From Chloroflexota bacterium (GTDB lineage: Bacteria; Chloroflexota; Dormibacteria; Aeolococcales; Aeolococcaceae), in the NCBI GenBank assembly GCA_005879785.1, contig VBJV01000045.1, forward strand, positions 1 to 46,326: a stretch of DNA of 46,326 nt. Direction: 5' to 3'. The notes beneath the pieces were generated by a model, which was given only the letters and a program-made list of their open reading frames with translations, ran no database searches and was not told the DNA's origin. A program made the position numbers and the translations under genes. Shown piece after piece: positions 21,811 to 36,202 of the stretch (positions are counted from its first letter, which is position 1; every line of letters begins with the position of its first letter).

Positions 21811-21931
21811 TTCCCCCACTCCCGGCTGGCAGCAGATGCTGAGGGCTTTCGCGGGTCCCGCCACACGCGCCTACAACACTAGAAAGCGTCAAACAGCCCA
21901 AAACTTGCGGGTCAACGCAGCCGGAGCGGCG

Positions 21932-24347
21932 TCACGCGTCGAAGGAACCGGCCGCGCCCACACCCGCGAAAGAGGCAACTCGATCGCCGTCGTCGAGCCG
22001 CATGATGATCACGCCCCGGGTCTGGCGGCCGGAGATGCGCACCTCCTCGAGGGGGATGCGGATCACCTGGCCGTTGGTCGAGATGACCATCAGCTCCTCG
22101 GAGAGGTCCTCGACCACGCGCATGCCGACGATCTCGCCGATCTTCGGAATCGCCGTCTGATCGACCGTGTACACGCCCTGGATGTTGCGGCTCTTCACCG
22201 GGTAGTCGGTCATCGGCGTGAGCTTGCCGAAGCCGTTCTCGGTGACCACGAGCACGTGCCCGTTGGGATTGACGATGTCGAAGCCGGCGACCTCGTCGCT
22301 CTTGCGCAGCCGGATGGCGCCGACACCCATGGTGTCGCGCCCCATCGGGCGCACCTCTTTCTCGGTGAAGCGCGAGCCCTTGCCCTGGCGCGTGACCACG
22401 AGCACCTGGTCGCCGCCCGACGACCGGCGCACCCAGTTGAGCTCGTCGCCGTCCTGCAGGTTGATGGCGATGAGGCCGTTGCGCCGCACCGACGCGTAGG
22501 CCGCCGCCGGCGTCTTCTTGATCTGGCCGAGCTTGGTCACCATCACCAGGTACTTCGCCCTGCTCGACCTCGATCAGGTTGATGACGGGGATGCCCTTCG
22601 CCTGCCGTTTGACGTCGGGGATCTCGTGCGTGCGGATGCGGAAGACGCGCCCGCGGTTGGTGAAGAACAGCATGTCGCTGTGCGTGCTCGCGGTCGTGGA
22701 GTGCTCGATGTAGTCCTCGTCGGTCGAGCGCCGCGCACCCACCACGCCTTTGCCGCCGCGCCGCTGCGACTTGTACGCATCCAGGGGCAGCCGTTTGACG
22801 TAGCCGCGGTGGGTGAGGGTGACGAAGACCTGCTCCTGCGGGATGAGGTCCTCCTCGTTCATCTCCACCTCGTCGAGGCGGATCTCGGTGCGGCGGGGCG
22901 CGGCGAACTTCTTGCGCAGCCCGGTGATCTCGTCCTTGACGATGCCGTCGATGAGGCGGGGGTTGGCCAGGATGTCCTCGAGCTGCGCGATGCGCTTGAT
23001 CAGCTCCTCGTATTCCTCGCGCAGCCTGCCGCTCTCCAGCCGGGTGAGCCGCCCCAGCCGCAGGTCGACGATCGCCTTGGACTGCCGTTCGGTCAGCTCG
23101 AAGCGCTGCTCCAGCGCCGCCTGCGCCGACTTCTCGTCGCTGGCGCCGCGGATGATCGCGATCACCTCCTCGATGTGGTCGAGGCACTTGATCAGCCCTT
23201 CGAGAATGTGGGCGCGATCCTTGGCGCGCTCCAGCTCGTGCCGGGTGCGCCGTGTCACCACGCTGCGGCGGTGGTCGATGTAGTGCTGCAGCAGCGCCTT
23301 CAGGCCGAGCACCTGCGGGCGCCCGTCGACGATGGCCAGCATCAGCGCGCCGTAGGTCATCTGCAGCTGTGAGTGCTTGTAGAGGTTGTTGAGCACCGTG
23401 TACGGCCGCGCGGTGGGTTTCAGCTCGATGACCAGTCGCGTCTTCTGGTCGCGGCCGGATTCGTCGCGCAGGTCGGCGATCCCCTCCAGCTTGCGGTCGT
23501 TGACCAGCTCGGCGATGGTCTGCACCAGGCGAGCCTTGTTCACCTGGTAGGGGAGCTCGTGCACGATGATCTGCTCACGCCCTGACTTCGACTCCTCGAA
23601 GTCCACTCGCGCACGCATGACGATGCGGCCGTGGCCCGTGCCGTACGCGGTGGCGATGTCGCGCGCGTAGATGATGCCGCCGGTGGGGAAGTCGGGCCCG
23701 CGCACGATGCGGATGAGGTCCTCTGTGGTCGCCTCCGGGTCGTCGATGAGGCGGATGGCCGCGTCGCACACCTCACCGAGGTTGTGGGGCGGGATGTTGG
23801 TGGCCATGCCCACCGCGATGCCACTCGCTCCGTTGACGAGCAGGTTGGGCATCAGGGCAGGCAGCACCAGCGGCTCGCGCACGTCGGGATCGTTGGAGTA
23901 GTTCGGGCCGAAGTCGACCGTTTCCTTCTCGATGTCCTCGAGCAGGCTCATGGCGATCGCGGTCATGCGCGCCTCGGTGTAACGCTGGTGCGCGGGAGGG
24001 TCGCCGTCGACGGAGCCGAAGTTGCCCTGACCGTCGACGAGCGGATAGCGCATCACCCAGTCCTGGGCCAGGCGGACCAGGGTGTCGTACACGGGCGCGT
24101 CGCCGTGCGGGTGGTAGTTCTTGATCACCTCGCAGACGATGGCGGCGCACTTCTTGTAGCGCGCTCCGGCCGTCATGCCCTGGTCGAGCATGGCCCAGAG
24201 GATGCGCCGCTGCACCGGCTTGAGCCCGTCACGCACGTCGGGCAGGGCGCGGCTGATGATCACGCTCATCGCGTAATCCATGTAGGAGGCGCGCATCTCC
24301 TGCTCGAGCTCGATCGGGTGGATCTGCCCGGGTTCGAAGACGGCCAT
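21932..24347 (-). pseudogene. gyrA: DNA gyrase subunit A, frame broken near 22553
   Basis: The N-terminal ~598 codons (24347 down to ~22554) carry YHPHGD and the catalytic RYTEARM. The C-terminal beta-pinwheel continues in another frame (YLVMVTKLGQIKKT... to stop 21932). About 15-17 residues normally found between ...EVEQGE and YLV... are absent. Confidence 0.85.
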
Positions 24348-25300
24348 TACGCCGACACTCCGGTGGGCTGCGCGGGTTGCGGCGACGGCGTCTTCGACAC
24401 GGCGCGCGCGATGACGCCGGAGACGCCGCGTTCGCGCGCGCGCGCCGCCACGCGGATGGCGTTCAGCGTGGCCTCCGCATCCGACCGCCCGTGGGCGATC
24501 ACCACCTCGCCCGCCACCCCGAGCAGCAGCGCGCCGCCCAGCTTGCCGCCTAACGACGTGCGCGCCTCGCGGCTGATGCTGGCGAAGAGGAACTCCCCGA
24601 CGCCCTCGGCCACCTTGAGCGCGATGTTGCCGGTGAAGCCGTCGGTGACGACTACGTCACACGCGCCGCGGAAGATGTCCTTGCCCTCGACGTTGCCCGT
24701 GAACTGCACCGGCATCGCCGCGATCAGGGTGTGCGCAGCCTGCACCAGCTCCGAGCCCTTCTCGGATTCCTCGCCGTTGCTGAGCAGCGCGACGCGAGGC
24801 GCATCGATGCCCAGCATCTCGCGCGCGTACACGTGTCCCATGAGCGCGAACTGGGCCAGCCATTCGGGCTTGCAGTCGGTGTTGGCGCCGACGTCGAGCA
24901 CGAAGGTCTGCCCGGACTCGCTGGGGAACGACGCACCGATGGCCGGCCTGGCGACGCCGGCGATGCGCTTCAGGGCGAACAGCGCGGCAGCCAGGGTGGC
25001 GCCGCTGTTGCCGGCGCTCACCAGCGCGCCTGCCTTGCCGCCGGCCACCAGCTCGGCGGCGCGCACGATCGACGAATCCCGCTTGGCGCGCACCGCGCCG
25101 GCAGGATGCTCGTGCATCTCGACCACCTCGCGCGCGTCCACCACCTCGAGCTGCGCGCCGCCCAGCAAGGGGTCGATCTGCTCGCGCTGGCCGACCAGCG
25201 ATACGGCGATCCCCTCGTGCGCGGCGCGCAGCGCGCCCTGCACGATCTCCGCCGGCGCGTTGTCACCGCCCATGACATCGACGGCAACCGGCAGCGGCAT
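24347..25300 (-). CDS. plsX: phosphate acyltransferase PlsX (apparently carrying a ~20-residue internal deletion)
   Basis: VDVMGGDNAP, SAGNSGA, VLDVGAN, VVTDGFTGNIALK, and IAHGRS motifs. 1-nt overlaps link it to gyrB (TGATG) and gyrA (TAATG). Confidence 0.85.
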   Translation of the reverse strand: MPLPVAVDVMGGDNAPAEIVQGALRAAHEGIAVSLVGQREQIDPLLGGAQLEVVDAREVVEMHEHPAGAVRAKRDSSIVRAAELVAGGKAGALVSAGNSGATLAAALFALKRIAGVARPAIGASFPSESGQTFVLDVGANTDCKPEWLAQFALMGHVYAREMLGIDAPRVALLSNGEESEKGSELVQAAHTLIAAMPVQFTGNVEGKDIFRGACDVVVTDGFTGNIALKVAEGVGEFLFASISREARTSLGGKLGGALLLGVAGEVVIAHGRSDAEATLNAIRVAARARERGVSGVIARAVSKTPSPQPAQPTGVSA

Positions 25301-27276
25301 CAGATGTCCAGGTTGCGCACGCTCTTGGCGTGCGTCTGGATGAAGCGCTTGCGGGGCTCCACGTCGGACCCCATCAGCCGGTCGAAGATGTCGTCAGCCT
25401 TGAGCGAGTCCTCCACCGCGACCTGCAGCAGCACGCGCTTGGCCGGGTCCATGGTGGTGGTCCAGAGCTCGTCCGGGTTCATCTCGCCGAGGCCCTTGTA
25501 GCGGGAGACCTCGGAGTCGCGGCCGAGCTCCTTGACCTTCGCATCCCGCTCCGAGTCGCTGTACGCGTAGACGGTGCGCTTGTTGCGACCCTTGCTCTCC
25601 ACCTTGTACAGCGGTGGCTGGGCCAGGTACACGTGCCCGTTCTCCACCAGCGGACGCAGGTGCCGCCAGAAGAAGGTGAGCAGCAGCGTGCGGATGTGCG
25701 AGCCGTCGACGTCGGCGTCGGCCATGAGCACGATGCGGTGATAGCGCAGCTTCTCGAGGCTGAGCGTCTCGCCGAAGCCGGCGCCCAGCGCGGTGATGAG
25801 GTTCTTGATCTCCTCGTTGCCGAGAATCTTGTCCGCGCGCGCCTTCTCGACGTTGAGGATCTTGCCGCGCAGCGGCAGGATGGCCTGGTTGCGCCCGTCA
25901 CGCGCACCCTTGGCCGAGCCGCCCGCCGACTGTCCCTCGACGATGAAGATCTCGCAGTGGGCCGGGTCGCGCTCGCGGCAGTCGACCAGCTTGCCGGGCA
26001 GTGCCGACGATTCGAGCAACCCCTTGCGCTGGACCAGGTCGCGCGCCTTGGCCGCCGCCTGGCGAGCGCGTGCCGCGGTGAGGGACTGCTCGATGATGCG
26101 CCGTCCGTCGCCGGGGTTCTCGTCCAGGTACTGCATGAGCGCATCGCTCAGCACCATGGAGACCTGGCCGGCCACCTCGCTGTTGCCCAGCTTGGTCTTG
26201 GTCTGACCCTCGAACTGCGGCTCGAGCAGCTTCACCGATATCACCGCGGTGAGCCCGTCGCGCACGTCCTCGCCGGTCAGGTTGGGGTCCTGCTCCTTGA
26301 GGATGCTCGCCTTGCGCGCGTACTTGTTGAGCGTCGCCGTCAGCGCGCTGCGGAAACCGGTGACGTGCGAGCCGCCCTCCTCGGTATGGACGTTGTTGGC
26401 GAAGGCGAGCACGTGCTCGGTGAAGGCGGTGTTCTGATACTGCAGCGCGATCTCGACGACGTTGCCTTCGATCTCTCGCTCGACGTACATCGGCCGCGCG
26501 TTGACCACGTTGCGGTTGGCGTTGAGGAACCTGACGAAAGACTGGATGCCGCCCTCGAAATGGAAGGTGTGCGTCACCGACCGCGCCTCGTCGCGCAGCA
26601 TGATCGTGATGCCCTTGTTGAGGAAGGCGTAGTGGCGCAGCGTCCCGGCCACCGTCTCCCAGGAGAACTCGATCTCCGGGAAGATCTGCGGGTCCGCCCA
26701 GAAGCGCACGTACGTGCCCTGCTTCTCGCTCTCGCCGCTGGCCGCGACCGGCCCGTCGGGCACGCCGCGCGTGTACGCCTGGTGGTGCACCTGCGAGGCG
26801 CGGTACACCTCGACCTCGAGGCGCTCGCTGAGCGCGTTGACGACGGAGAGGCCGACACCGTGCAGACCGCCCGACACCTTGTAGCCGCCGCCGCCGAACT
26901 TGCCGCCGGCGTGCAGCTTGGTCAGCACCACCTCGAGGTCGAGCACGGACACGGACCGGTCCGCGTGCAGGGTCACGATGATGGTGTCGCAATAGCCGGC
27001 GAGTGCCTCGTCGATGCTGTTGTCGACCAGTTCGACGACGAGGTGATGGAGGCCGCGCACATCGGTCGAGCCGATGTACATGCTCGGCCGGCGGCGTACT
27101 GGCTCGAGCCCTTCCAGGATCTGGATCTGCTCGGCGCTGTACGTGTCGCGACGGCGCGCTGTGTCGGTTATCGGTGCTGCTCCGGGATGACGTTGGCGGC
27201 TTCTGGCAGTGGTGAGCGAAACCCGTTTCTCCAGCGCGGGAATGCGTGAAAAACGGACACTCGGAACGCTGTCCAT
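25300..27276 (-). CDS. gyrB: DNA gyrase subunit B (ORF intact, but the DxGRGIP ATP-lid segment is missing)
   Basis: ILEGLEPVRRRPSMYIGST, VDNSIDEALAG, LHAGGKFGGGGYKVSGGLHGVG, QTKTKLGN, PLRGKILNVEKA, and DADVDGSHI motifs. The expected DNGRGIPV... block between VSVLD and LEVVLTKLHAGG is absent. Confidence 0.85.
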   Translation of the reverse strand: MDSVPSVRFSRIPALEKRVSLTTARSRQRHPGAAPITDTARRRDTYSAEQIQILEGLEPVRRRPSMYIGSTDVRGLHHLVVELVDNSIDEALAGYCDTIIVTLHADRSVSVLDLEVVLTKLHAGGKFGGGGYKVSGGLHGVGLSVVNALSERLEVEVYRASQVHHQAYTRGVPDGPVAASGESEKQGTYVRFWADPQIFPEIEFSWETVAGTLRHYAFLNKGITIMLRDEARSVTHTFHFEGGIQSFVRFLNANRNVVNARPMYVEREIEGNVVEIALQYQNTAFTEHVLAFANNVHTEEGGSHVTGFRSALTATLNKYARKASILKEQDPNLTGEDVRDGLTAVISVKLLEPQFEGQTKTKLGNSEVAGQVSMVLSDALMQYLDENPGDGRRIIEQSLTAARARQAAAKARDLVQRKGLLESSALPGKLVDCRERDPAHCEIFIVEGQSAGGSAKGARDGRNQAILPLRGKILNVEKARADKILGNEEIKNLITALGAGFGETLSLEKLRYHRIVLMADADVDGSHIRTLLLTFFWRHLRPLVENGHVYLAQPPLYKVESKGRNKRTVYAYSDSERDAKVKELGRDSEVSRYKGLGEMNPDELWTTTMDPAKRVLLQVAVEDSLKADDIFDRLMGSDVEPRKRFIQTHAKSVRNLDI

Positions 27277-27401
27277 TCTACCATTTCCGGGCCCATTTCA
27301 GACCCCTTGGAGACCTCTGGGCCGAGGGGGTTAGCATCACTGCTGTGGACGGCATCGCAGGCGGCGTGCTCGCGTCGGGCCGCTGCCGCGCGGGGTAGTC
27401 C

Positions 27402-30050
27402 GTGGCGCTCGAGGAGTACCGGCGCAAGCGGGACTTCACGCGCACTCCGGAGCCGAGCGGCGAAACCGCCGCCGCGAAGCGGCGCGGCCGGTCGGCCTGG
27501 GACTCACTGCCGCACGGACGGCGGTTCTGCGTGCAGCGCCATCGCGCCACCCGGCTGCACTTCGACTTCCGCCTGGAGCACGACGGCGTGCTGCTGTCGT
27601 GGGCGGTGACCCGCGGCCCGACCCTCGACCCTGCTATCAAACGCCTGGCGGTGATGACCGAGGACCATCCCGTCGACTACGGCGACTTCGAGGGCGTCAT
27701 CCCGTCCGGATACGGCGCCGGCACCGTGCAGCTGTGGGACATCGGCACGTTCGAGTGGGTGCGCGAGTCGGCGGAGAACTACGAGGCGTCGTTCAAGAAG
27801 GGCGACCTCAAGCTCAGGCTGTCCGGCCAGAAGCTCAACGGCGAGTACGCGCTGGTCAACACCGGCGCCCGCGGGGCGCAGTACGGCGGCAGCCGCGAGC
27901 CGGCCCGCAACTGGCTGATGATCAAGAAGCGCGACGAAGCCGTTGTCGAGGGGTTCGACGCCAACAGCCTGGATGTTTCAGTCAAGACTGGCCGCAGCCT
28001 GGACCAGATCGCCGCGGACGAGGGCGGCGATCCTCGCGAGATGCGGCGAGCGGCGCGGGCCCAGCCCGGCCGCTCCTCACCCGCGCGGCCGGCGGCGCGC
28101 GCCCAGCCGCGGCCGGCACCCGCGCCCATGCTGGCCACCCCGGTCGCCGGACCGTTCTCGCGAGAGGGCTGGCTGTTCGAGCTCAAGTACGACGGCGTGC
28201 GCGCGCTGGCCTCCATCGCCGGCGACGAGATGCGCATCGTGGGCCGCAGCGGGCGCGACGAGACGGGCCGGTACCCGGAGCTGCGCTCGCTGGTGCGCTT
28301 CGTGCGCGCGCGCGACGCGGTCCTCGACGGCGAGATCGTGGCGCTCGACGAGCGCGGCGTACCGTCCTTCGAACGCCTGCAGTCGCGCATCAACGTGACC
28401 CGCGCCGCCGACATCGAGCGCGCCGCGCGCGAACACCCGGCGGTGTATGTGGCCTTCGACCTCCTCGAGCTCGACGGCCGCGACCTCGCGCGCACCGCGC
28501 TGCGCATCCGCAAGAAGACGCTGCGTGACGTGATCACGCCATCGCCCGTGCTCATGTATGCCGACCATGTCGAGAACGACGGCGAGCGCTTCTTCGAGGA
28601 GCTGCGGCGCAGCGGCGCCGAGGGCATGGTCGCCAAACGGGCGGACTCGCCGTACCAGCCGGGGATTCGCAGTCGCGACTGGCTGAAGGTGAAGGCGTGG
28701 CACACGCAGTCGTGCGTGATCATCGGTTACACCGCGGGACAGGGACGCCGCCGCGAGCACCTGGGCGCGCTGATTCTCGCGGTGTTCCGCGACGGTGCCC
28801 TGCGTCACTGCGGTCAGGTGGGCACCGGCTTCGACGCGCGCATGCTGCGCGACCTGCGTGACCGCCTCGGCGCGCTGCGCGTCGACGCGCCTGCGGTGGA
28901 ACCGCCGCCACGCACGGCCGAACCGGCGACCTGGGTGAAGCCTGAGCTGGTCTGCGAGGTCCGTTTCGCGGGCTGGACCAACGGCGGGGTATTGCGCCAC
29001 CCGGCGTTCGCCGGCCTGCGCACCGACCTGTCGCCCGCCGACACCGCGCCGGAACGCGAGATTCCGACGGATGCCGCGCTGGCCGATCCGGCACCGCGCT
29101 CCGGACACGCGCCGCCGTCCGATGCAGACGTCGACTCGGCGCTGCGCCGGCTGCGCACACTCCACGGCAACGCGCACTGGGAGGTGGCCGGACGCCGGCT
29201 CGCGCTCACCAACCTCGACAAGCTGCTGTGGCCGCAGGACGGCCTCACCAAGCGCGACATGATCGCCTACTACGTGCGCATGGCGGAGTCTCTCCTGCCG
29301 TACCTGCGCGAGCGCCCGCTGTCCATGCAGGTGTTCCCCGACGGCATCGAGGGCAAGTCCTTCTGGCGCAAGGACAAGCCGTCGCACGCGCCGGCATGGA
29401 TCGATTCCTGGACGTACCACGGCGAGAAGACGAAGACGTACATCGTGGTCAACGAGGTGGCCACGCTGGGCTGGGTGGCCAACGCCGGGGTCATCGACCT
29501 GCACCCGTGGCACTCGCGCATCGACGCGCCGGACCAGCCGGACTGGGCCGTGTTCGACCTGGACCCGTTCGAGCCCGCGACCTTCCGCGACGTGGTGGAC
29601 ATCGCCAAGCTGGTCAAGGCGGCGCTGGACCACTTCCGCATGCGCGGCGTGGTCAAGACCAGCGGGCAGACGGGGCTGCAGATCTACGTCCCCCTGCGCC
29701 GCGGTCCCGACTACACCGTGGTGCGCAACTGGGTCGAGGAGGTCGGCAAGGCGATCGGCCAGGTGGCGCCCGACCGCATCACCTGGCAATGGGAGGTGGC
29801 TCGGCGCACCGGCAAGATCCGCATCGACTACACCCAGAACATCATCAACAAGACCCTGGCCGCGCCGTATTCGCTGCGACCGGCGCGCGGGGCGCCGGTG
29901 TCGACGCCGATCGCCTGGGAGGAGCTGGACGATCCCCGCCTCCGACCCGACCGGTGGACGATCAAGTCCATCGCGCGTCGCGTCGCCGAGGTCGGCGACC
30001 TGTTCCTCGACGCCCTGGCGGGCGACCAGGACCTCCCCAAGGGGGGCTGA
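27402..30050 (+). CDS. ligD: multidomain NHEJ ligase LigD (phosphoesterase - ligase - polymerase/primase)
   Basis: 882 aa with a GTG start. PE domain: KRDFTRTPEP, RLHFDFRLE, EDHPVDYGDFEG. Ligase domain: motif I ELKYDGVRA, DGEIV, EGMVAKR, DWLKVK. Pol domain: LTNLDKLLWP, DLDP, SGQTGLQIYVPL. Confidence 0.9.
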   Translation: MALEEYRRKRDFTRTPEPSGETAAAKRRGRSAWDSLPHGRRFCVQRHRATRLHFDFRLEHDGVLLSWAVTRGPTLDPAIKRLAVMTEDHPVDYGDFEGVIPSGYGAGTVQLWDIGTFEWVRESAENYEASFKKGDLKLRLSGQKLNGEYALVNTGARGAQYGGSREPARNWLMIKKRDEAVVEGFDANSLDVSVKTGRSLDQIAADEGGDPREMRRAARAQPGRSSPARPAARAQPRPAPAPMLATPVAGPFSREGWLFELKYDGVRALASIAGDEMRIVGRSGRDETGRYPELRSLVRFVRARDAVLDGEIVALDERGVPSFERLQSRINVTRAADIERAAREHPAVYVAFDLLELDGRDLARTALRIRKKTLRDVITPSPVLMYADHVENDGERFFEELRRSGAEGMVAKRADSPYQPGIRSRDWLKVKAWHTQSCVIIGYTAGQGRRREHLGALILAVFRDGALRHCGQVGTGFDARMLRDLRDRLGALRVDAPAVEPPPRTAEPATWVKPELVCEVRFAGWTNGGVLRHPAFAGLRTDLSPADTAPEREIPTDAALADPAPRSGHAPPSDADVDSALRRLRTLHGNAHWEVAGRRLALTNLDKLLWPQDGLTKRDMIAYYVRMAESLLPYLRERPLSMQVFPDGIEGKSFWRKDKPSHAPAWIDSWTYHGEKTKTYIVVNEVATLGWVANAGVIDLHPWHSRIDAPDQPDWAVFDLDPFEPATFRDVVDIAKLVKAALDHFRMRGVVKTSGQTGLQIYVPLRRGPDYTVVRNWVEEVGKAIGQVAPDRITWQWEVARRTGKIRIDYTQNIINKTLAAPYSLRPARGAPVSTPIAWEELDDPRLRPDRWTIKSIARRVAEVGDLFLDALAGDQDLPKGG

Positions 30051-30115
30051 AACCCCGGCGGGGCCAACCCGCATGCCTGCCTGAACCGCCCGCTTTGCAA
30101 ATAGAATTCCTGCCA

Positions 30116-30637
30116 ATGGCAGTGCTTCTCCTCAACGCATCACTGCAGCCGCTCAACGTCATCAGTCACCGCCGGCTGGTGGTGCTGCTGACCAAGGAGC
30201 GGGTCGCCTTCATGGACGGCGCTGCGGAGCAAGCCGCCGCCGAGGCCGTGGCGGGCCGCAGGCTGCCCGAGGGCGTGGTCATCGTGCGCCTGCTGCGCAC
30301 CATTCATGTGCCCCGCAGGTTGCTGCGGCCGAACCGTCGCAACCTCCTGCTGCGTGACGACCACACCTGCCAGTACTGCGGTCACGTGGGGACATCCGCC
30401 GAGCTCACCGTCGACCACGTCAAGCCGGTCTCCCGGGGCGGCGCCGCCGACCGCTGGGAGAACGTGGTGATCGCCTGCAAGAAGTGCAACTGGCGCAAGT
30501 CCAACCGGCTGCCCGAGGAGGTCGGGCTGCACCTCCGTCGCAAGCCCGCTCCGCTCACGCAGGAGTACGCGCACATCATCTTCCTGCGCTACCCGGAGCT
30601 GAAGGCCGCGTACGATCGCCTGCTCGCGGTCGCCTGA
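30116..30637 (+). CDS. HNH endonuclease
   Basis: 173 aa. CQYCG...LTVDHVKPVSRGG...NVVIACKKCNWRKSN (HNH with a Cys4 zinc site), plus the N-terminal LLLNASLQPL domain typical of this widespread family. Confidence 0.8.
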   Translation: MAVLLLNASLQPLNVISHRRLVVLLTKERVAFMDGAAEQAAAEAVAGRRLPEGVVIVRLLRTIHVPRRLLRPNRRNLLLRDDHTCQYCGHVGTSAELTVDHVKPVSRGGAADRWENVVIACKKCNWRKSNRLPEEVGLHLRRKPAPLTQEYAHIIFLRYPELKAAYDRLLAVA

Positions 30638-30647
30638 GGAGGAGCAC

Positions 30648-31103
30648 ATGGCACAGACGGTCACCATCGCCGGCCAGCAGTTCAAGAAGCGCAACATCGT
30701 CGGCGTCTGGATCGGGCTGCCGCTCATCACGCTGGGCATCTACTTCTTCGTCTGGATCTACAAGGTCAACTACGAGGCGCGCCGTTCCGTGCTCGCGTTC
30801 ATCCCCGGATTCCTCCTCATCGTGCCGCCGTACATCGCCGTGTACCGGCTGGGCAAGCGCATCCAGCGCATGGAGGAGGCGGCGCAGATGCAGAGCCGCG
30901 CAGAGCCCGTGCTCGGCCTCATCCTCGCCTTCCTGTACGGCGCGTACCTGCTCTACTACCAGAGCCACCTCAACGGCATCTGGGACCGCTACCTGCAGGT
31001 GCCGGTCACGCCGCCGCAGCCGCTCGCGCCCCCGCCGCCGATCACGGCCGCGCCGCAGCTGCCACCACCACAGAACGCCCCGCCGCCCCCGCCCATCGGC
31101 TGA
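30648..31103 (+). CDS. DUF4234-like small membrane protein with proline-rich tail
   Basis: LGIYFFVWIYKVNYE motif and 3-4 hydrophobic spans. The C-terminal 45 residues are more than 50 percent Pro. GGAGGAG lies upstream, 10 nt after the HNH stop. Confidence 0.7.
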   Translation: MAQTVTIAGQQFKKRNIVGVWIGLPLITLGIYFFVWIYKVNYEARRSVLAFIPGFLLIVPPYIAVYRLGKRIQRMEEAAQMQSRAEPVLGLILAFLYGAYLLYYQSHLNGIWDRYLQVPVTPPQPLAPPPPITAAPQLPPPQNAPPPPPIG

Positions 31104-31153
31104 GCGGGTCGGCGTTCACGCGCGGTTCGCCTGCCTATACTCAACGTCAAACA

Positions 31154-31969
31154 ATGCCTCGATCGATGTGGCGCGGCGCAATCAGCTTTGGCATGGTGGC
31201 CATCCCCGTGCGGCTGTACCTGGCCACCGAGTCGAAGAGCCCTTCGTTTCGCCTGCTCTGCCCCAACGACCGAGCCCCGATCCGCAACAAGCGTTGGTGC
31301 ACGGTCGAGGACAGGGAGATCGGCTGGAACGATGCGCTGCGCGGCTACGAAGTCGGCAAGGACGAGTACGTCGTCATCGAGGACAACGACCTCGACGAGC
31401 TGCCACTGCATACGACGCACACGATCGACATCGTCGAGTTCTGTCCCGACGAGGAGATCGAGGCCGGGCTGTACATGAAGAGCGCCTACTACCTCGAGCC
31501 CGAGGCGGTGGGTGGCAGGCCGTACAACCTGCTGCGGGCGGCGCTGGACAAGACGGGCAAGGTGGCGATCGGCAAGATCGCGCTGCGCGACCGCGAGCAT
31601 CTCTGCCGGCTGGCGCTGCACGACAGCGGGCTGCTGCTCAACACCCTGTACTGGCCCGACGAGATCCGCAGCACGAAGGAGCTGTCGATCCCCGAGGACG
31701 GCGAGGTGCCCAAGCGCGAGCTCGATATGGCCGTGATGCTGGTCGAGAACCTGAGCGCGCACTTCGACCCGCAGCGGCACAAGGACGAATACCGCGAGGC
31801 GCTGCTGAAGGTCGTCGAAGCCAAGATGGCCAACCAGCCCGTGGAACGCCTGGCGGCGCCGGAACCGGCCAAGGTGACCGACCTCATGGCCGCGCTGAAG
31901 GCGTCGGTCGAAGCGGCTCAGGCCGGCAAGAAGGCCGCCGAGCCTGTCCGCCGCCGCAAGGCCTCCTGA
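31154..31969 (+). CDS. ku: NHEJ DNA end-binding protein Ku
   Basis: RSMWRGAISFGMVAIPVRLY N-terminus, typical ~270-aa length, and a basic C-terminal tail. Confidence 0.9.
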   Translation: MPRSMWRGAISFGMVAIPVRLYLATESKSPSFRLLCPNDRAPIRNKRWCTVEDREIGWNDALRGYEVGKDEYVVIEDNDLDELPLHTTHTIDIVEFCPDEEIEAGLYMKSAYYLEPEAVGGRPYNLLRAALDKTGKVAIGKIALRDREHLCRLALHDSGLLLNTLYWPDEIRSTKELSIPEDGEVPKRELDMAVMLVENLSAHFDPQRHKDEYREALLKVVEAKMANQPVERLAAPEPAKVTDLMAALKASVEAAQAGKKAAEPVRRRKAS

Positions 31970-31983
31970 GCCAAACACGCCAG

Positions 31984-33084
31984 GTGGGCGGGGCGGGCGC
32001 GTCGCGACGGCGGGCGGACCCTGCTGCGGATGCCCTGCCGCTCACCCTGCCCACGCCACGCGCGCTCCCCGGCCAGATGCGCCTGGAGGCTGCGGTGCCG
32101 TGCTCGCAGCCCTTCGACGACCTCGACTGGCGGTTCAGCGTGGACTGGGACGGGGCCCGAGCGCTGCTCATCGCCGCCGGCGGCGGGGCAACGCGGCTCC
32201 GTGGCGAGTCGGCCGTCGACCTCACCACGCGCTTCCCCGAGCTCACCGGCACCGCTGACGAGCTGGCCGCTCGCGCCGCGGTGCTCGACGGCGTCATCGC
32301 CGTGCTCGACGGTGACGGGCGCCCCGACCTGCATGGCTTCGGCCGCCGCCTGGCACTGGGCGGCGACGGCGCCGGGATGCTGCCCGTGGTGTTCCTCGCC
32401 ACCGACGTTCTCCACCTGGATGGCGCGTCGACGATGGCGTGGCCGCTCGACCGGCGCCTCGAGGCGCTCACCGGCCTGGTCGGTCACAGCGATGCCGTGC
32501 AGGTGCCCGACCACGTCTCCGGCCGGGGTCGCGCCCTGGCCGAGGCGGCCCTGGAACGGGGGCTGAGCGCGCTGCTGGCTCGCCGCGGCGACGCCGCGTA
32601 CCACGCCGGCATGGCCTCCCCGCACCGGCTGCGGGTGGCGCTGACCCCGACGGTCACCTGCGTCGTCGTCGGCATCGAGCATCGCCGGCACCGCCCGATG
32701 CGCCTGCTGCTCGGCCTGCACGAGGCCGGCCGCCTGGGCATGGCCGGCTGGGTCACCGGCCCGCACGACATGGTCATCGAGCGCTGGCTGGAGCGCGTCG
32801 CGGCACCGCTCGCGGGCGGGACGCCGCCGGCCGGCTTCGGCGCCGGGGACGCTGTGAGCTGGCTCCGGCCCGGCCTGACCGCGACCGTGAGCCACCACGG
32901 CAGCGAGCGCGACGGCACCCTGAGACGGCCGGTGCTGCTCGCCGTGCGCGACGACGTCGACCCGGCCTGGTGCATGCGGCGTGAGCCGGTGCCGCCACCG
33001 CGAGACGCCAAGTCCGGCGGCGGGTTCGCGCCGACCCTGCTGGTGCCCCTGCCCCTGGACGACGCGGTCACGGTTCGGCGCTGA
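31984..33084 (+). CDS. ATP-dependent DNA ligase-like protein with all nucleotidyltransferase catalytic residues replaced (predicted pseudo-enzyme)
   Basis: It is collinear with the LigD ligase plus OB domains. However, motif I is SVDWDGARA (Lys to Asp), motif III is LDGVIA (Glu to Val), motif IV is LSALLARR, and motif V is RLRVAL. The GTG 31984 start is 14 nt after the ku stop; the alternative is ATG 32077. Confidence 0.7.
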   Translation: MGGAGASRRRADPAADALPLTLPTPRALPGQMRLEAAVPCSQPFDDLDWRFSVDWDGARALLIAAGGGATRLRGESAVDLTTRFPELTGTADELAARAAVLDGVIAVLDGDGRPDLHGFGRRLALGGDGAGMLPVVFLATDVLHLDGASTMAWPLDRRLEALTGLVGHSDAVQVPDHVSGRGRALAEAALERGLSALLARRGDAAYHAGMASPHRLRVALTPTVTCVVVGIEHRRHRPMRLLLGLHEAGRLGMAGWVTGPHDMVIERWLERVAAPLAGGTPPAGFGAGDAVSWLRPGLTATVSHHGSERDGTLRRPVLLAVRDDVDPAWCMRREPVPPPRDAKSGGGFAPTLLVPLPLDDAVTVRR

Positions 33085-33195
33085 TCGCCTTCACGGCGGC
33101 GGATGCGAATCGCGGCGTATGCGATGATCGGCTCACCGCTTGCAGGAGCTCCCCGCATGGTGCGATCGGCCTGACGCGGCGGAGGGGTGACCGCG

Positions 33196-33993
33196 ATGGC
33201 CATCCTCATGTGCCGTCCCGAGTTCTTCGGGGTGGAGTACGAGATCAATCCGTGGATGCACGTCGCGGTGAGCGTCGATCACGCGCTCGCCGAGGCGCAG
33301 TGGGAGCGCCTGCACCGAACGTACGCGGCGCTGGGTGTGCCCATCGAGCTGGCCGAGCCGGTGGCCGGGCAGCCCGACATGGTGTTCACCGCCAACGCAG
33401 CGGTCGTCTGGAAGCGCAAGGCGGTGCTCAGCAACTTCCGCCACGACGAGCGCCACGGCGAGGAGGAGCACTGGAACGCCGAGCTGGTGCAGCGCGGCTT
33501 CGAGGTGCACCGGCTGCCGCATGACATCGCGTTCGAGGGCGCCGGCGACGCGCTGTTCGTCGGGGACCGGCTGTTCCTGGGGCATGGCTTCCGCACCGAC
33601 CTCGAAGCGCACGCGCCGGTGGCCGCGCTCCTCGGCGTCGAGATCGTCTCCCTACAGCTCGCCGACCCGCGCTTCTATCACCTCGACACCTGCTTCTGTC
33701 CCCTCAACGAGAGCACCGTCCTCTTCGCGCCGGAGGCGTTCGCCCCCGAATCCGCGGCCCGGATCCGCGACCTCGTCCCGCACGTGATCGAGGTGCCCGC
33801 CGACGTGGCCGCGGGCTTCGCCTGCAACGCGATGCCGGTCGGCGACACCGTGATCTCATCGCTGGCCGCGTCCCAGCTGGAGTCGCCGCTCGAACGGGCC
33901 GGATTCAGCACGGTGGAACTGCCCATGAGCGAGTTCATGAAGTCGGGCGGTGGCGTTCGCTGCCTCTCGCTGCCGCTCGACCTCGGCGCCTGA
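33196..33993 (+). CDS. pentein-superfamily enzyme (amidinotransferase / dimethylarginine dimethylaminohydrolase-like)
   Basis: EINPWM N-terminus, FYHLDTCF, and the C-terminal catalytic Cys in GGGVRCLSL. ATG 33196 is 8 nt after GGAGGGG; the track start is GTG 33187. Confidence 0.8.
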   Translation: MAILMCRPEFFGVEYEINPWMHVAVSVDHALAEAQWERLHRTYAALGVPIELAEPVAGQPDMVFTANAAVVWKRKAVLSNFRHDERHGEEEHWNAELVQRGFEVHRLPHDIAFEGAGDALFVGDRLFLGHGFRTDLEAHAPVAALLGVEIVSLQLADPRFYHLDTCFCPLNESTVLFAPEAFAPESAARIRDLVPHVIEVPADVAAGFACNAMPVGDTVISSLAASQLESPLERAGFSTVELPMSEFMKSGGGVRCLSLPLDLGA

Positions 33994-34104
33994 CCGCTCC
34001 CCCCACCGGGTGTGCTTAGTGTGGACGCCCTGTGGAAAACAGCTCGCACACGTTTCCCAGCGCTCTCTGAGCAGACTCCCAGGAACCAGCGGGAAGATGG
34101 CAGC

Positions 34105-34797
34105 GTGAGCGAGCCGACGCGGGTGCTGGTCGTCGATGACGAGCGAGCCATCACCGACCTCGTCTCGATGGCCCTCAAGTACGAGGGATTCGCGGTGCAG
34201 ACGGCTGACACGGCCAGAGCGCGCCACGCCGTCATGGACTTCCGGCCCGAGCTGGTGGTCCTCGACGTGGGGCTCCCCGACGATGACGGCTTCACCCTCG
34301 TGCAGCGCCTGGTCAGCGACGGCATCAAGGTGCCGGTCATCTTCCTGACCGCCCGCGACGCCACCGAGGAGAAGGTGCGCGGCCTCACCGTCGGCGGCGA
34401 CGACTACGTCACCAAGCCATTCAGCATCGAGGAGCTGGTGGCCCGCATCCGGGTCGTGCTCCGCCGCCACCGTCCGGCGGGCGAGGACGGGGCGCGCCTG
34501 GCGCTGGCCGACCTGGAGCTGAACGAGGAAACCCACGAGGTGTTTCGCGCCGGGCGCCCCGTGGAGCTCACGCGCACCGAGTTCCGCCTGCTCCGCTACC
34601 TGCTGATCAACGCCGGACGAGTGCTGTCACGCACGCAGATCCTCGACCACGTCTGGGAGTACGACTTCGGCGGTGACGCCAGCGTGCTCGAGACGTACAT
34701 CAGCTACCTGCGTCGCAAGGTGGATCGCGTGGAGCCGCCCCTCATCCACACCGTGCGCGGGGTGGGTTACGTCCTGCGCGTGCCGCGCACAGCGTAG
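34105..34797 (+). CDS. OmpR-family response regulator
   Basis: VLVVDDE, phospho-acceptor VVLDVGLPDDDG, KPF, and winged-helix VRGVGYVL. GTG 34105 is the start. Confidence 0.9.
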   Translation: MSEPTRVLVVDDERAITDLVSMALKYEGFAVQTADTARARHAVMDFRPELVVLDVGLPDDDGFTLVQRLVSDGIKVPVIFLTARDATEEKVRGLTVGGDDYVTKPFSIEELVARIRVVLRRHRPAGEDGARLALADLELNEETHEVFRAGRPVELTRTEFRLLRYLLINAGRVLSRTQILDHVWEYDFGGDASVLETYISYLRRKVDRVEPPLIHTVRGVGYVLRVPRTA

Positions 34798-36202
34798 ATG
34801 TCGCTGCGGCTGCGGCTCCTGCTCATCCTCGCGCCGCTGTTCGTCGCCGGGCTTGTTGCTGCCGATGCTGGCACATACGTGGCGCTGCAGTCATCGTTGC
34901 TGTCGAGCGTGGACAACCAGCTGCACGTCGCGCACGTCAGCCTCGAGAGCGTGGTCCTGAGTCAGAACGGCGAGTTCGGCTCGCCCGGTGGGCGCCCCCA
35001 CCGGCACGTTTGCCGAGCTGCTCGACAGCTCCGGCAAGGTGGTCGGCACGCCGGTGCTGCTGGGCAGCGACCTCATCGACTCGGCAACGCACCCGGTGCT
35101 GCCCTCGTCGCTGCCGGCGGACAAGACGTTTCTCACCGTCGACGGCACGGGCAGCGTGCACCACTACCGCATCTACGTGGACAACTCCGATGACGTCCCC
35201 GGCGACACGATCGTCGCGGCCATCCCGCTCGACACGGTGGACTCCACGCTCGGCCGGCTGCTGCTCTTCGAGATCGCGATCAGCGGCGGCATCACGCTCA
35301 TCGTCGTCACCGCCACGTGGATCATGGTGCGGCGGGGACTGCGGCCGCTGGAACGCATGGGTGCGACGGCTCGCTCCATCGCCGCCAGCGACCTCAGCCG
35401 GCGGGTGACGCCATCGTCATCGGCCACCGAGGTGGGCCGCCTCGGGCTCGCCCTCAACACCATGCTCGGCCAGCTCGAGCAGGTCTTCGCCGAACGCGCC
35501 GCCGGCGAGCAGCGTCTGCGTCACTTCGTCTCCGACGCGTCGCACGAACTGCGCACCCCGCTCACGTCGATGCGCGGCTACGCCGAGCTGCTGCAGCGCA
35601 ACCCGGACATGTCCCGCGAGGACTATGCGCTGGCGCTGCGCCGCATCGAGGGTGAGGCAGCCCGCATGGGAATCCTCGTCGACGACCTGCTGCTGCTGGC
35701 GCGGTTGGACCAGGGCCGTCCGCTGGAGCGCAACCACGTGGACCTCGAGGCGCTGGTCAAGGATGCGTGCGCCGACGCGCGAGCGGCGGACGGCACACGC
35801 ATGATCAGCGCGCACGTATCGGCGCCGCTGCAGGTCGTGGGCGACGATCTGCGCCTGCGTCAGGTGGTGAGCAACCTGCTGCGCAACGCGCTGGTGCACA
35901 CGCCGCCGGGGACGCCGATCGAGGTGGACCTCAGCGCGGCCGACGGCCGCGCCGTCATCGACGTCATCGACCACGGCCCGGGGATCCCGCCTGGCCAGAA
36001 GGAGCGCATCTTCGAGCGCTTTCACCGCGCCGAACCGGACCGCAGCCGCGACCGGGGCGGCAGCGGGCTGGGTCTGAGCATCGCGACCGCCGTGGTGGCA
36101 GCGCACGGCGGGCGGATCAGCGTGTCAGAGACCACGGGTGGCGGCGCGACATTTCGCATCGAGCTGCCGCGGGTTGGTGCGGTGCAGGCGGCAGACCGCT
36201 GA
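34798..36202 (+). pseudogene. sensor histidine kinase, frameshifted between 34961 and 34995
   Basis: The TM1/sensor N-terminus is in frame 1 (ATG 34798, directly after the regulator stop). The remainder is in frame 2: TM2, HAMP, H-box SDASHELRTPLTSMRGYAELL, N-box LLRNALVHTP, and G-boxes DHGPGIP and GGSGLGLSI. The pattern is consistent with a 1-nt indel in ccc ggt ggg cgc ccc c. Confidence 0.8.

Follow-up and report, generated by a model that had tools for sequence, protein, structure and literature searches.

We analyzed a 46,326-nt stretch of DNA (hereafter the window; contig VBJV01000045.1 of assembly GCA_005879785.1, catalogued as a Chloroflexota bacterium) with a block of genes for bacterial non-homologous end joining (NHEJ) at positions 27402-33084. 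Five genes on the + strand make up the block, encoding in order the ligase LigD, an HNH endonuclease, a DUF4234 membrane protein, Ku, and a ligase-like protein that we call pLig (Table 1). They are separated by 65, 10, 50, and 14 nt, and the DUF4234 gene is preceded by the sequence GGAGGAG. These positions, the common strand, the four gaps, and the GGAGGAG element had all been given in a preliminary description made from the sequence alone, and in each of these respects that description is accurate. The G+C content at third codon positions is 0.90-0.95 across all five reading frames in a window of ~70% G+C, and the long antisense open reading frames (ORFs) within the block are probably the usual artefacts of high G+C, with homology carried by the + frames.

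Table 1. Coordinates of the NHEJ block and its flanking genes, in positions of the window.
Feature	Position	Strand	Basis or remark
ligD, three-domain ligase D (PE-LIG-POL)	27402-30050	+	Pfam, NCBIfam
LigD PE domain	~27534-27857	+	Pfam
LigD LIG domain	~28125-29027	+	Pfam
LigD POL domain	~29247-30005	+	Pfam
LigD motif I, ELKYDG	28179-28202	+	
TAGAAT, -10-like hexamer, candidate HNH promoter	30102-30107	+	8 nt before HNH ATG
HNH endonuclease, 173 aa: ~80-aa N-terminal domain and Cys4-zinc HNH core	30116-30637	+	PF01844
DUF4234 small membrane protein, Pro-rich tail, GGAGGAG upstream	30648-31103	+	PF14018, 1.6e-8
TATACT, -10-like hexamer, candidate ku-pLig promoter	31136-31141	+	12 nt before Ku ATG
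ku	31154-31969	+	TIGR02772, 275.8 bits (cutoff 150); PF02735, 3.9e-40
pLig, stand-alone ligase-domain paralog (nucleotidyltransferase and OB fold)	31984 (GTG)-33084	+	alignments, AlphaFold2, Foldseek
pLig degenerate motif I, SVDWDGAR	32137-32160	+	alignment
pLig conserved C-terminal tail motif, FAPTLLVPLPL	33025-33057	+	alignment
gyrA ORF	21912-24347	-	
gyrA true continuation, other frame	21932-22573	-	
gyrA, plsX-like gene, gyrB	21912-27276	-	
gyrB	25300-27276	-	
DDAH/arginine-dihydrolase-like gene, response regulator, histidine kinase	33187-36202		

For comparison, we fetched 80 genome loci, each from a species-level genome, with a pLig profile and searched them by tblastn with the proteins of the window. 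A second sample comprised 80 metagenomic NHEJ loci, and other ligase-domain proteins that lack the catalytic lysine (Lys-less) were traced by a metagenome scan with their alignment, a further homolog search, and contig look-ups. The homologs of pLig and of the HNH protein, together with the 80 genome loci, come almost entirely from metagenome-assembled genomes (MAGs) of Candidatus Dormibacterota, with a few labelled otherwise. The nearest relative is a soil contig (L085) on which all five genes are present and whose pLig is 87% identical. As the gene order recurs across dozens of related genomes, the arrangement is not due to chance, and the locus is a conserved NHEJ region of a Candidatus Dormibacterota genome.

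The core of the system is complete. LigD matches PF13298, PF01068, PF04679, and PF21686 and scores 523 bits against TIGR02776 (cutoff 373), and its ligase motifs are intact: ELKYDG (motif I), DGE, FDLL, EGMVAK, and WLKVK. It is a complete PE-LIG-POL enzyme and is predicted to be catalytically intact. With Ku scoring well above its family cutoff, both proteins that define bacterial NHEJ are present at the level of their sequence families. Compared with L085, the ratio of nonsynonymous to synonymous substitution rates (dN/dS) is 0.13 for LigD, 0.04 for Ku, 0.02 for the HNH protein, 0.33 for the DUF4234 protein, and 0.17 for pLig, the last value indicating purifying selection.

The unusual member of the block is pLig, which retains the architecture of an NHEJ ligase and appears to have lost its chemistry. 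Its matches to the ligase families PF01068 (26.8 bits) and PF04679 (29.8 bits) barely exceed the cutoffs, and its score of 118.2 bits against TIGR02779, a curated NHEJ-ligase family, lies below the cutoff of 227.75. The motif I lysine is the nucleophile for adenylylation in all ATP-dependent ligases. In pLig, this residue (ELKYDG in LigD, EGKWDG in mycobacteria) aligns to Asp or Glu within SV[DE]WDG, where the Trp is the normal residue following the Lys position. This column holds Asp or Glu, rarely Asn, Gly, or Ala, in all family representatives. The other motifs have been replaced as well: the motif III Glu by Val (also Ile, Ser, or Thr in the family), the motif IIIa Phe by Thr or Ser, the EGxxxK of motif IV by [SPAT]AxxAR (Glu and Lys becoming Ser and Arg), and the LKxK of motif V by LRx[AP] (Lys-x-Lys becoming Arg-x-Ala). 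These replacements are shared by the 18 sequences that we aligned and by ~23 representatives of the family, which came from a search of 1.84 billion cluster representatives. All of the ~23 have a degenerate motif I, as do 111 of the 120 listed pLig homologs, the remainder appearing to be fragments. Judging from these alignments, pLig is without every residue required to form the ligase-AMP intermediate, in agreement with the preliminary description, which had called it a ligase-fold protein without catalytic residues.

The pLig alignment contains 58 invariant and 30 nearly invariant columns, none of which is a Lys, and the pLig of the window has a single Lys in 366 residues, located within a non-conserved part of the tail, alongside 40 Arg. 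Arg takes the place of Lys at the motif IV and V positions of active ligases, such that the positive charge is kept. An AlphaFold2 (AF2) model (pLDDT 79.7, pTM 0.79, with low confidence for residues 1-29 and 337-366) predicts that pLig keeps the nucleotidyltransferase and OB fold. The best matches are to the ligase domain of mycobacterial LigD, both by Foldseek (6nhx with E 3.5e-24; 6nhx/1vs0 within ~1e-24 to 1e-22) and by comparison of the pLig profile with the PDB (6nhx/1vs0 at 1e-34). Beyond the fold, a conserved C-terminal tail motif follows a low-confidence, presumably disordered linker in both clades; in the pLig type of the window, its consensus is F.PT[LV]L.PLP[LF].

These features bear on two alternative explanations. 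One is that pLig is what remains of a redundant ligase gene, without function and in decay. The loss of the catalytic residues would be expected of such a remnant, as would the failure of many homologs to reach the Pfam thresholds. However, the pLig ORF is largely intact over the 80 species-level genomes, barring a few broken or fragmentary assemblies, and its 58 invariant columns, its dN/dS, the conservation of its tail motif, and its fixed position after ku together come close to refuting this explanation. The other is that the old pocket has acquired a new catalytic or ligand-binding activity, such as nucleotide sensing or the removal of AMP from abortive 5'-adenylated ends. Conserved polar residues do remain in the pocket, namely the Asp or Glu at the Lys position, the Gly-Arg of motif I, and the Asp residues of motifs III and IIIa. 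Yet the residues that replace the Lys differ among the types of Lys-less protein described below (D/E, R, A/C, S, L, and M), which argues against one new chemistry at that site, and no known family with such an activity is matched; we therefore regard a repurposed pocket as highly improbable.

The genomic association of pLig is with ku. All 75 genome loci with upstream DNA exceeding 1 kb have pLig immediately after a ku gene of the same orientation, and in most loci, as in the window, the pLig GTG start codon falls 3-19 nt past the ku stop. The most common order is gyrB (on the - strand), ligD, a gap of ~700 nt, HNH, ku, pLig, DDAH, a response regulator, and a histidine kinase. The gap between ligD and HNH holds, in 42 of 57 loci, a gene for a DUF4232 lipoprotein-like protein (e.g., L002:7798-8430), and in five loci, two ABC exporter genes on the opposite strand occupy the interval between HNH and ku (e.g., L001:5319-8684). 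Of the 59 loci with sufficient upstream DNA, 47 have the HNH gene upstream of ku; the other 12 represent a split island, in which ligD-HNH keeps its place next to gyrB, ahead of genes for aconitase and RecJ, and ku-pLig-DDAH is found elsewhere. In the one split locus examined (L064), ku-pLig-DDAH lies downstream of GlgE, and upstream of ku we observe only GlgE and unannotated ORFs, with nothing related to NHEJ. Two further contigs with other flanks (VIT1 upstream and a HAD or glycosyltransferase gene downstream) keep the order ligD-[small ORF]-HNH-ku-pLig.

Conserved order alone proves little here because gyrB, plsX, and DDAH are equally syntenic. Both in split islands and with changed flanks, ku stays with pLig and ligD with HNH. 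Therefore, the stable units of the region are ligD-HNH on the one hand and ku-pLig on the other. Within the split subclade, we also note RecJ a few genes downstream of ligD-HNH (L081:11564-15266 and L178-L183) and, in L081 and L082, a uracil-DNA glycosylase gene.

The upstream regions suggest how these units are expressed. By comparative alignment, we find a TANNNT hexamer ending 6-10 nt before the HNH start codon in 56 of 56 loci (TAGAAT in 47) and another ending 6-12 nt before that of ku in 76 of 76 (TATACT in 63), in both cases whichever gene lies upstream and against a background frequency of 0.7%. The corresponding alignment for ligD yields no comparable -10-like element. Neither HNH nor ku has a Shine-Dalgarno sequence at its start, whereas the DUF4234 gene has its GGAGGAG, and pLig has neither a Shine-Dalgarno sequence nor a -10 box. 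The distance between hexamer and ATG is that expected of mRNAs that are leaderless or have a very short leader, and the conserved hexamers suggest that Dormibacterota produce such messages from HNH and ku. Because only 14 nt, devoid of any promoter-like element, separate the pLig GTG from the ku stop, ku and pLig are most likely made from one message and, hence, in step. By contrast, the block as a whole is unlikely to be one operon because HNH and ku would each have their own conserved -10 box; we infer at least three expression units, consisting of ligD, HNH (together with the DUF4234 gene in the lineage of the window), and ku-pLig.

This result bears on the candidate extended end-processing module of the preliminary description, which named a dedicated nuclease and a non-catalytic ligase-fold partner. 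In its full form, the proposal is that all five genes constitute one such module, in which the HNH protein would trim ends and the DUF4234 protein and the dead ligase would act as partners. The genes are co-directional and tightly spaced, and the HNH gene adjoins ligD in three flank contexts of one clade (gyrB-flanked, VIT1-flanked, and split island). The HNH protein itself scores 52.7 bits against PF01844 (E 4.6e-14, cutoff 21.4). Its core motifs are CQYCG, DH, WEN, and CKKCNWRK, and the catalytic and zinc residues do not vary among 19 sequences. No other protein of the block is as conserved as the HNH protein, which is 87-91% identical in most loci where gyrB is ~80% identical. We conclude that the HNH protein is an extremely conserved nuclease with a predicted intact active site, and this very strong constraint also favors the proposal. 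However, the two conserved -10 boxes would divide the block, which at the sequence level agrees with the independent transcripts that the preliminary description had named as counting against its module, and insertions occur beside HNH, as seen with the DUF4232 gene and the ABC exporter genes. Furthermore, the HNH gene is found neither in the ku-pLig-ligD operon of the sister clade (R-type, below) nor in the 80 metagenomic NHEJ loci. Eight full-length homologs of 33-48% identity, on replicons of Acaryochloris, Nonomuraea, Tsukamurella, Arthrobacter, Curtobacterium, Rhodococcus, Mycolicibacterium, and Frondihabitans, have neither Ku nor LigD within 6-8 kb. The adjacency of HNH and ligD is clade-specific, and the data do not tell a functional link from inherited synteny; a role for the HNH protein in end processing is possible but doubtful.

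The case of DUF4234 is simpler. Its gene occurs in none of the 80 genome loci and none of the 80 metagenomic NHEJ loci and is confined to the window and L085. By this distribution, it is a lineage-specific passenger that has no part in the NHEJ system. A module of all five genes is accordingly unlikely. What stands of the earlier proposal is the Ku-associated ligase-fold partner, which is supported by its position after ku in every informative locus, by purifying selection, and by the sister Lys-less types described below; membership of the HNH protein is ambiguous, and at the sequence level neither the inclusion of DUF4234 nor the single co-transcribed block is borne out.

The HNH protein matches the phage family phrog_16726 over its full length (7e-31), and its core most resembles Gme, an HNH nicking endonuclease of Geobacter (4H9D), and the HNH domains of IscB and Cas9. 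Proteins of similar size and HNH type have been described as IshB, which comprise PLMP and HNH in ~180 aa and belong to the IS200/IS605-related OMEGA group (PMC11610941, PMC10734217). For the PLMP/RRXRR domain of IshB, Pfam gives no match in the HNH protein of the window even at E 10, and the profile comparison with the PDB aligns only the HNH core to IscB. The Foldseek match to IscB covers ~63 columns and is non-significant (E 0.4-1), on a poor AF2 model (pLDDT 57). A scan of the whole window matched no Rfam family, and PADLOC returned only generic HNH-core matches and none for the DUF4234 protein, Ku, or pLig. No omega-RNA was thus found in the window, and the HNH gene holds the same syntenic position in ~50 genomes; given this synteny and the strong purifying selection on it, its behavior is not that of a mobile element. 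That it is a domesticated IshB-like nuclease is possible and is offered only as a lead.

Lys-less ligases linked to NHEJ genes are not limited to the pLig type of the window. Dormibacteria MAGs are also the source of the R-type (EVRWDGLR), in which ku is followed by pLig(R), a ligD of PE-LIG composition (~540 aa), and DnaJ; 44-50 nt separate ku from pLig(R), and 11-16 nt separate pLig(R) from ligD. The R-type tail consists of a basic run followed by LPQLP[FL]. In the A/C-type, pLig again follows ku, with no ligD within 7 kb, and the S-type (FEPSW[DE]G), one member of which carries a Chloroflexota label, has pLig 2 nt ahead of a full-length ligD. Additional stand-alone ligase-domain proteins have Leu, Ala, Arg, Met, Asn, or Trp at the Lys position (P0263, P0265, P0270, P0274, P0283, P0285, P0295, P0494, P0496, and P0519, among others, and those of L102, L103, L116, L117, and L121); some belong to MAGs with a Chloroflexota or Dehalococcoidia label, and most are on short contigs.

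Active ligases are found at the same position. An active, Lys-bearing stand-alone ligase gene immediately follows ku in 18 of the 80 metagenomic loci, and pLig therefore occupies the slot of the normal Ku-adjacent ligase. This suggests that the ancestor of pLig was the active ligase normally encoded after ku. In some unrelated metagenomic NHEJ loci (L127, L136, L140, and L152), two Lys-bearing stand-alone ligase genes flank ku. A dead copy could plausibly have evolved from such a duplicated state. In a rough neighbor-joining tree, branches are long, and Lys-bearing ligases fall among the descendants of the node that unites the Lys-less groups.

Taken together, we favor a reading in which the NHEJ locus consists of separate expression units and pLig is a former ligase retained as a non-catalytic partner of Ku, to which we assign a probability of roughly 60%. 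In this mechanism, pLig would bind DNA ends or nicks through its preserved, Arg-rich ligase fold and would dock on Ku or LigD by the conserved LPxLP-type peptide that ends its disordered linker. It could then help to hold or hand over the ends, and LigD would carry out end-healing and sealing.

A contrary role for the same protein is that of a decoy or brake, occupying Ku or the ends and thereby limiting mutagenic joining until LigD displaces it. A ligase fold without chemistry whose production is coupled to that of Ku could act in this way, and in clade 1, LigD appears to be transcribed separately from its own upstream region, such that the ratio of LigD to pLig could vary. A constitutive one-to-one coupling with Ku would nonetheless be odd for a regulator, and the R- and S-types are as tightly coupled to ligD (gaps of 2-16 nt), which better fits a co-worker than an antagonist. 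We consider a decoy improbable.

Several points weigh against pLig as a non-catalytic Ku partner made from its own ku-pLig unit. The candidate promoters are conserved hexamers rather than mapped 5' ends, and a generic sigma-70 promoter and terminator scan of 27000-34100 returned no promoter and one terminator at chance level. The proposed physical interaction between pLig and Ku is deduced from gene adjacency alone. In one R-type genome, a 5-kb insertion separates ku from pLig(R), and an S-type example has no ku in the 1.8 kb upstream; the partner of pLig could therefore be LigD rather than Ku. The neighbor-joining tree leaves undecided whether Lys was lost once or several times. Moreover, the Dormibacterota that carry pLig are uncultured organisms, and the sequence of the window is of imperfect quality, with indels in gyrA and gyrB, although the NHEJ block itself agrees with L085.

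A more ambitious version can be stated, which we hold only tentatively. In it, Dormibacterota NHEJ would be a system of three to four components, with pLig as an obligatory non-catalytic third subunit that docks on Ku or LigD via LPxLP, bridges or presents the ends, and is a bacterial, ligase-derived functional counterpart of XRCC4, XLF, and PAXX. The HNH protein, possibly domesticated from an IshB-like nuclease, would clean the ends. The Lys-less types D/E, R, A/C, S, L, and M would then belong to a family of accessory NHEJ pseudoenzymes that has gone unrecognised, spanning Dormibacterota and Chloroflexota-labelled MAGs.

The genes flanking the block are conserved as well. Upstream, on the opposite strand, lie gyrB, plsX, and gyrA, with the plsX-like gene (FA_synthesis) separating the two gyrase genes; the order gyrA-plsX-gyrB holds in every related contig examined that reaches that far (L081, L084, and L178-L182). 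The gyrA of the window switches frame at ~22575, near the start of the C-terminal domain. Its true continuation (KYLVMVTKLGQIKK...) is in another frame, and the high G+C keeps the wrong frame open to the same end; the change is probably an assembly indel. The GyrB of the window is without 17 residues (NGRGIPVEMHPTAKKSA) at ~26937 that L085 has, in a segment that we take to belong to the nucleotide-binding region of the GHKL ATPase, and this gap reflects either an assembly artefact or a defective copy. Downstream of pLig, a DDAH/arginine-dihydrolase-like gene is followed by genes for a response regulator and a histidine kinase. DDAH immediately follows pLig in 57 of 71 loci, and this association is probably one of synteny only.

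When compared to known systems, the locus is closest to canonical two-component NHEJ, as in Mycobacterium tuberculosis, Pseudomonas aeruginosa, and Bacillus subtilis, with which it shares a Ku of TIGR02772, an intact PE-LIG-POL LigD, and closely spaced genes on one strand. Unlike these systems, it adds a dead ligase-domain gene coupled to ku and an HNH gene between ligD and ku. Reviews and surveys of bacterial NHEJ describe only Ku and the LigD domains (PMC8656161, PMC7719229). In a literature search whose coverage excludes most subscription journals, we found no Lys-less ligase paralog, linked to Ku or otherwise, and no HNH neighbor of LigD, and Dormibacterota NHEJ appeared only in a passing mention. 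A second point of comparison is the class of ku operons with an active stand-alone ligase of the LIG-only LigD or LigC type, in which ku is likewise followed by a gene of ~320-370 aa with nucleotidyltransferase and OB domains. Relative to these ligases, pLig has motifs I, III, IIIa, IV, and V replaced and a conserved C-terminal tail motif added. In public databases, pLig-type proteins are labelled "bifunctional NHEJ protein LigD", "ATP-dependent DNA ligase", or "non-homologous end-joining DNA ligase", so that surveys counting LIG domains overstate how many active ligases these lineages have.

There is precedent for a gene of the NHEJ neighborhood in which the ancestral activity has been disabled, and for an additional nuclease alongside LigD: a non-canonical PolX adjoins LigD in Alphaproteobacteria, having kept its exonuclease and lost its ancestral activity (PMC9226535). 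PolX differs in belonging to another protein family and in retaining its exonuclease, whereas pLig has no sign of catalysis in its sequence.

The comparison with eukaryotes concerns the proposed mode of action only. Eukaryotic NHEJ includes the non-catalytic factors XRCC4, XLF, and PAXX, and a non-catalytic structural role has also been reported for DNA ligase IV. By analogy, pLig would be a non-enzymatic partner that holds Ku-bound ends and docks by a short C-terminal peptide. We know of no fold or sequence relationship between pLig and XRCC4, XLF, or PAXX, and bacterial Ku has no vWA domains, the sites at which Ku-binding motifs attach in eukaryotes. Dormibacterota inhabit cold, dry, and nutrient-poor soils, where the repair of breaks in non-replicating cells likely matters. 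If pLig does act as proposed, bacteria too have recruited non-catalytic end-joining factors, in this case by disabling a spare ligase.

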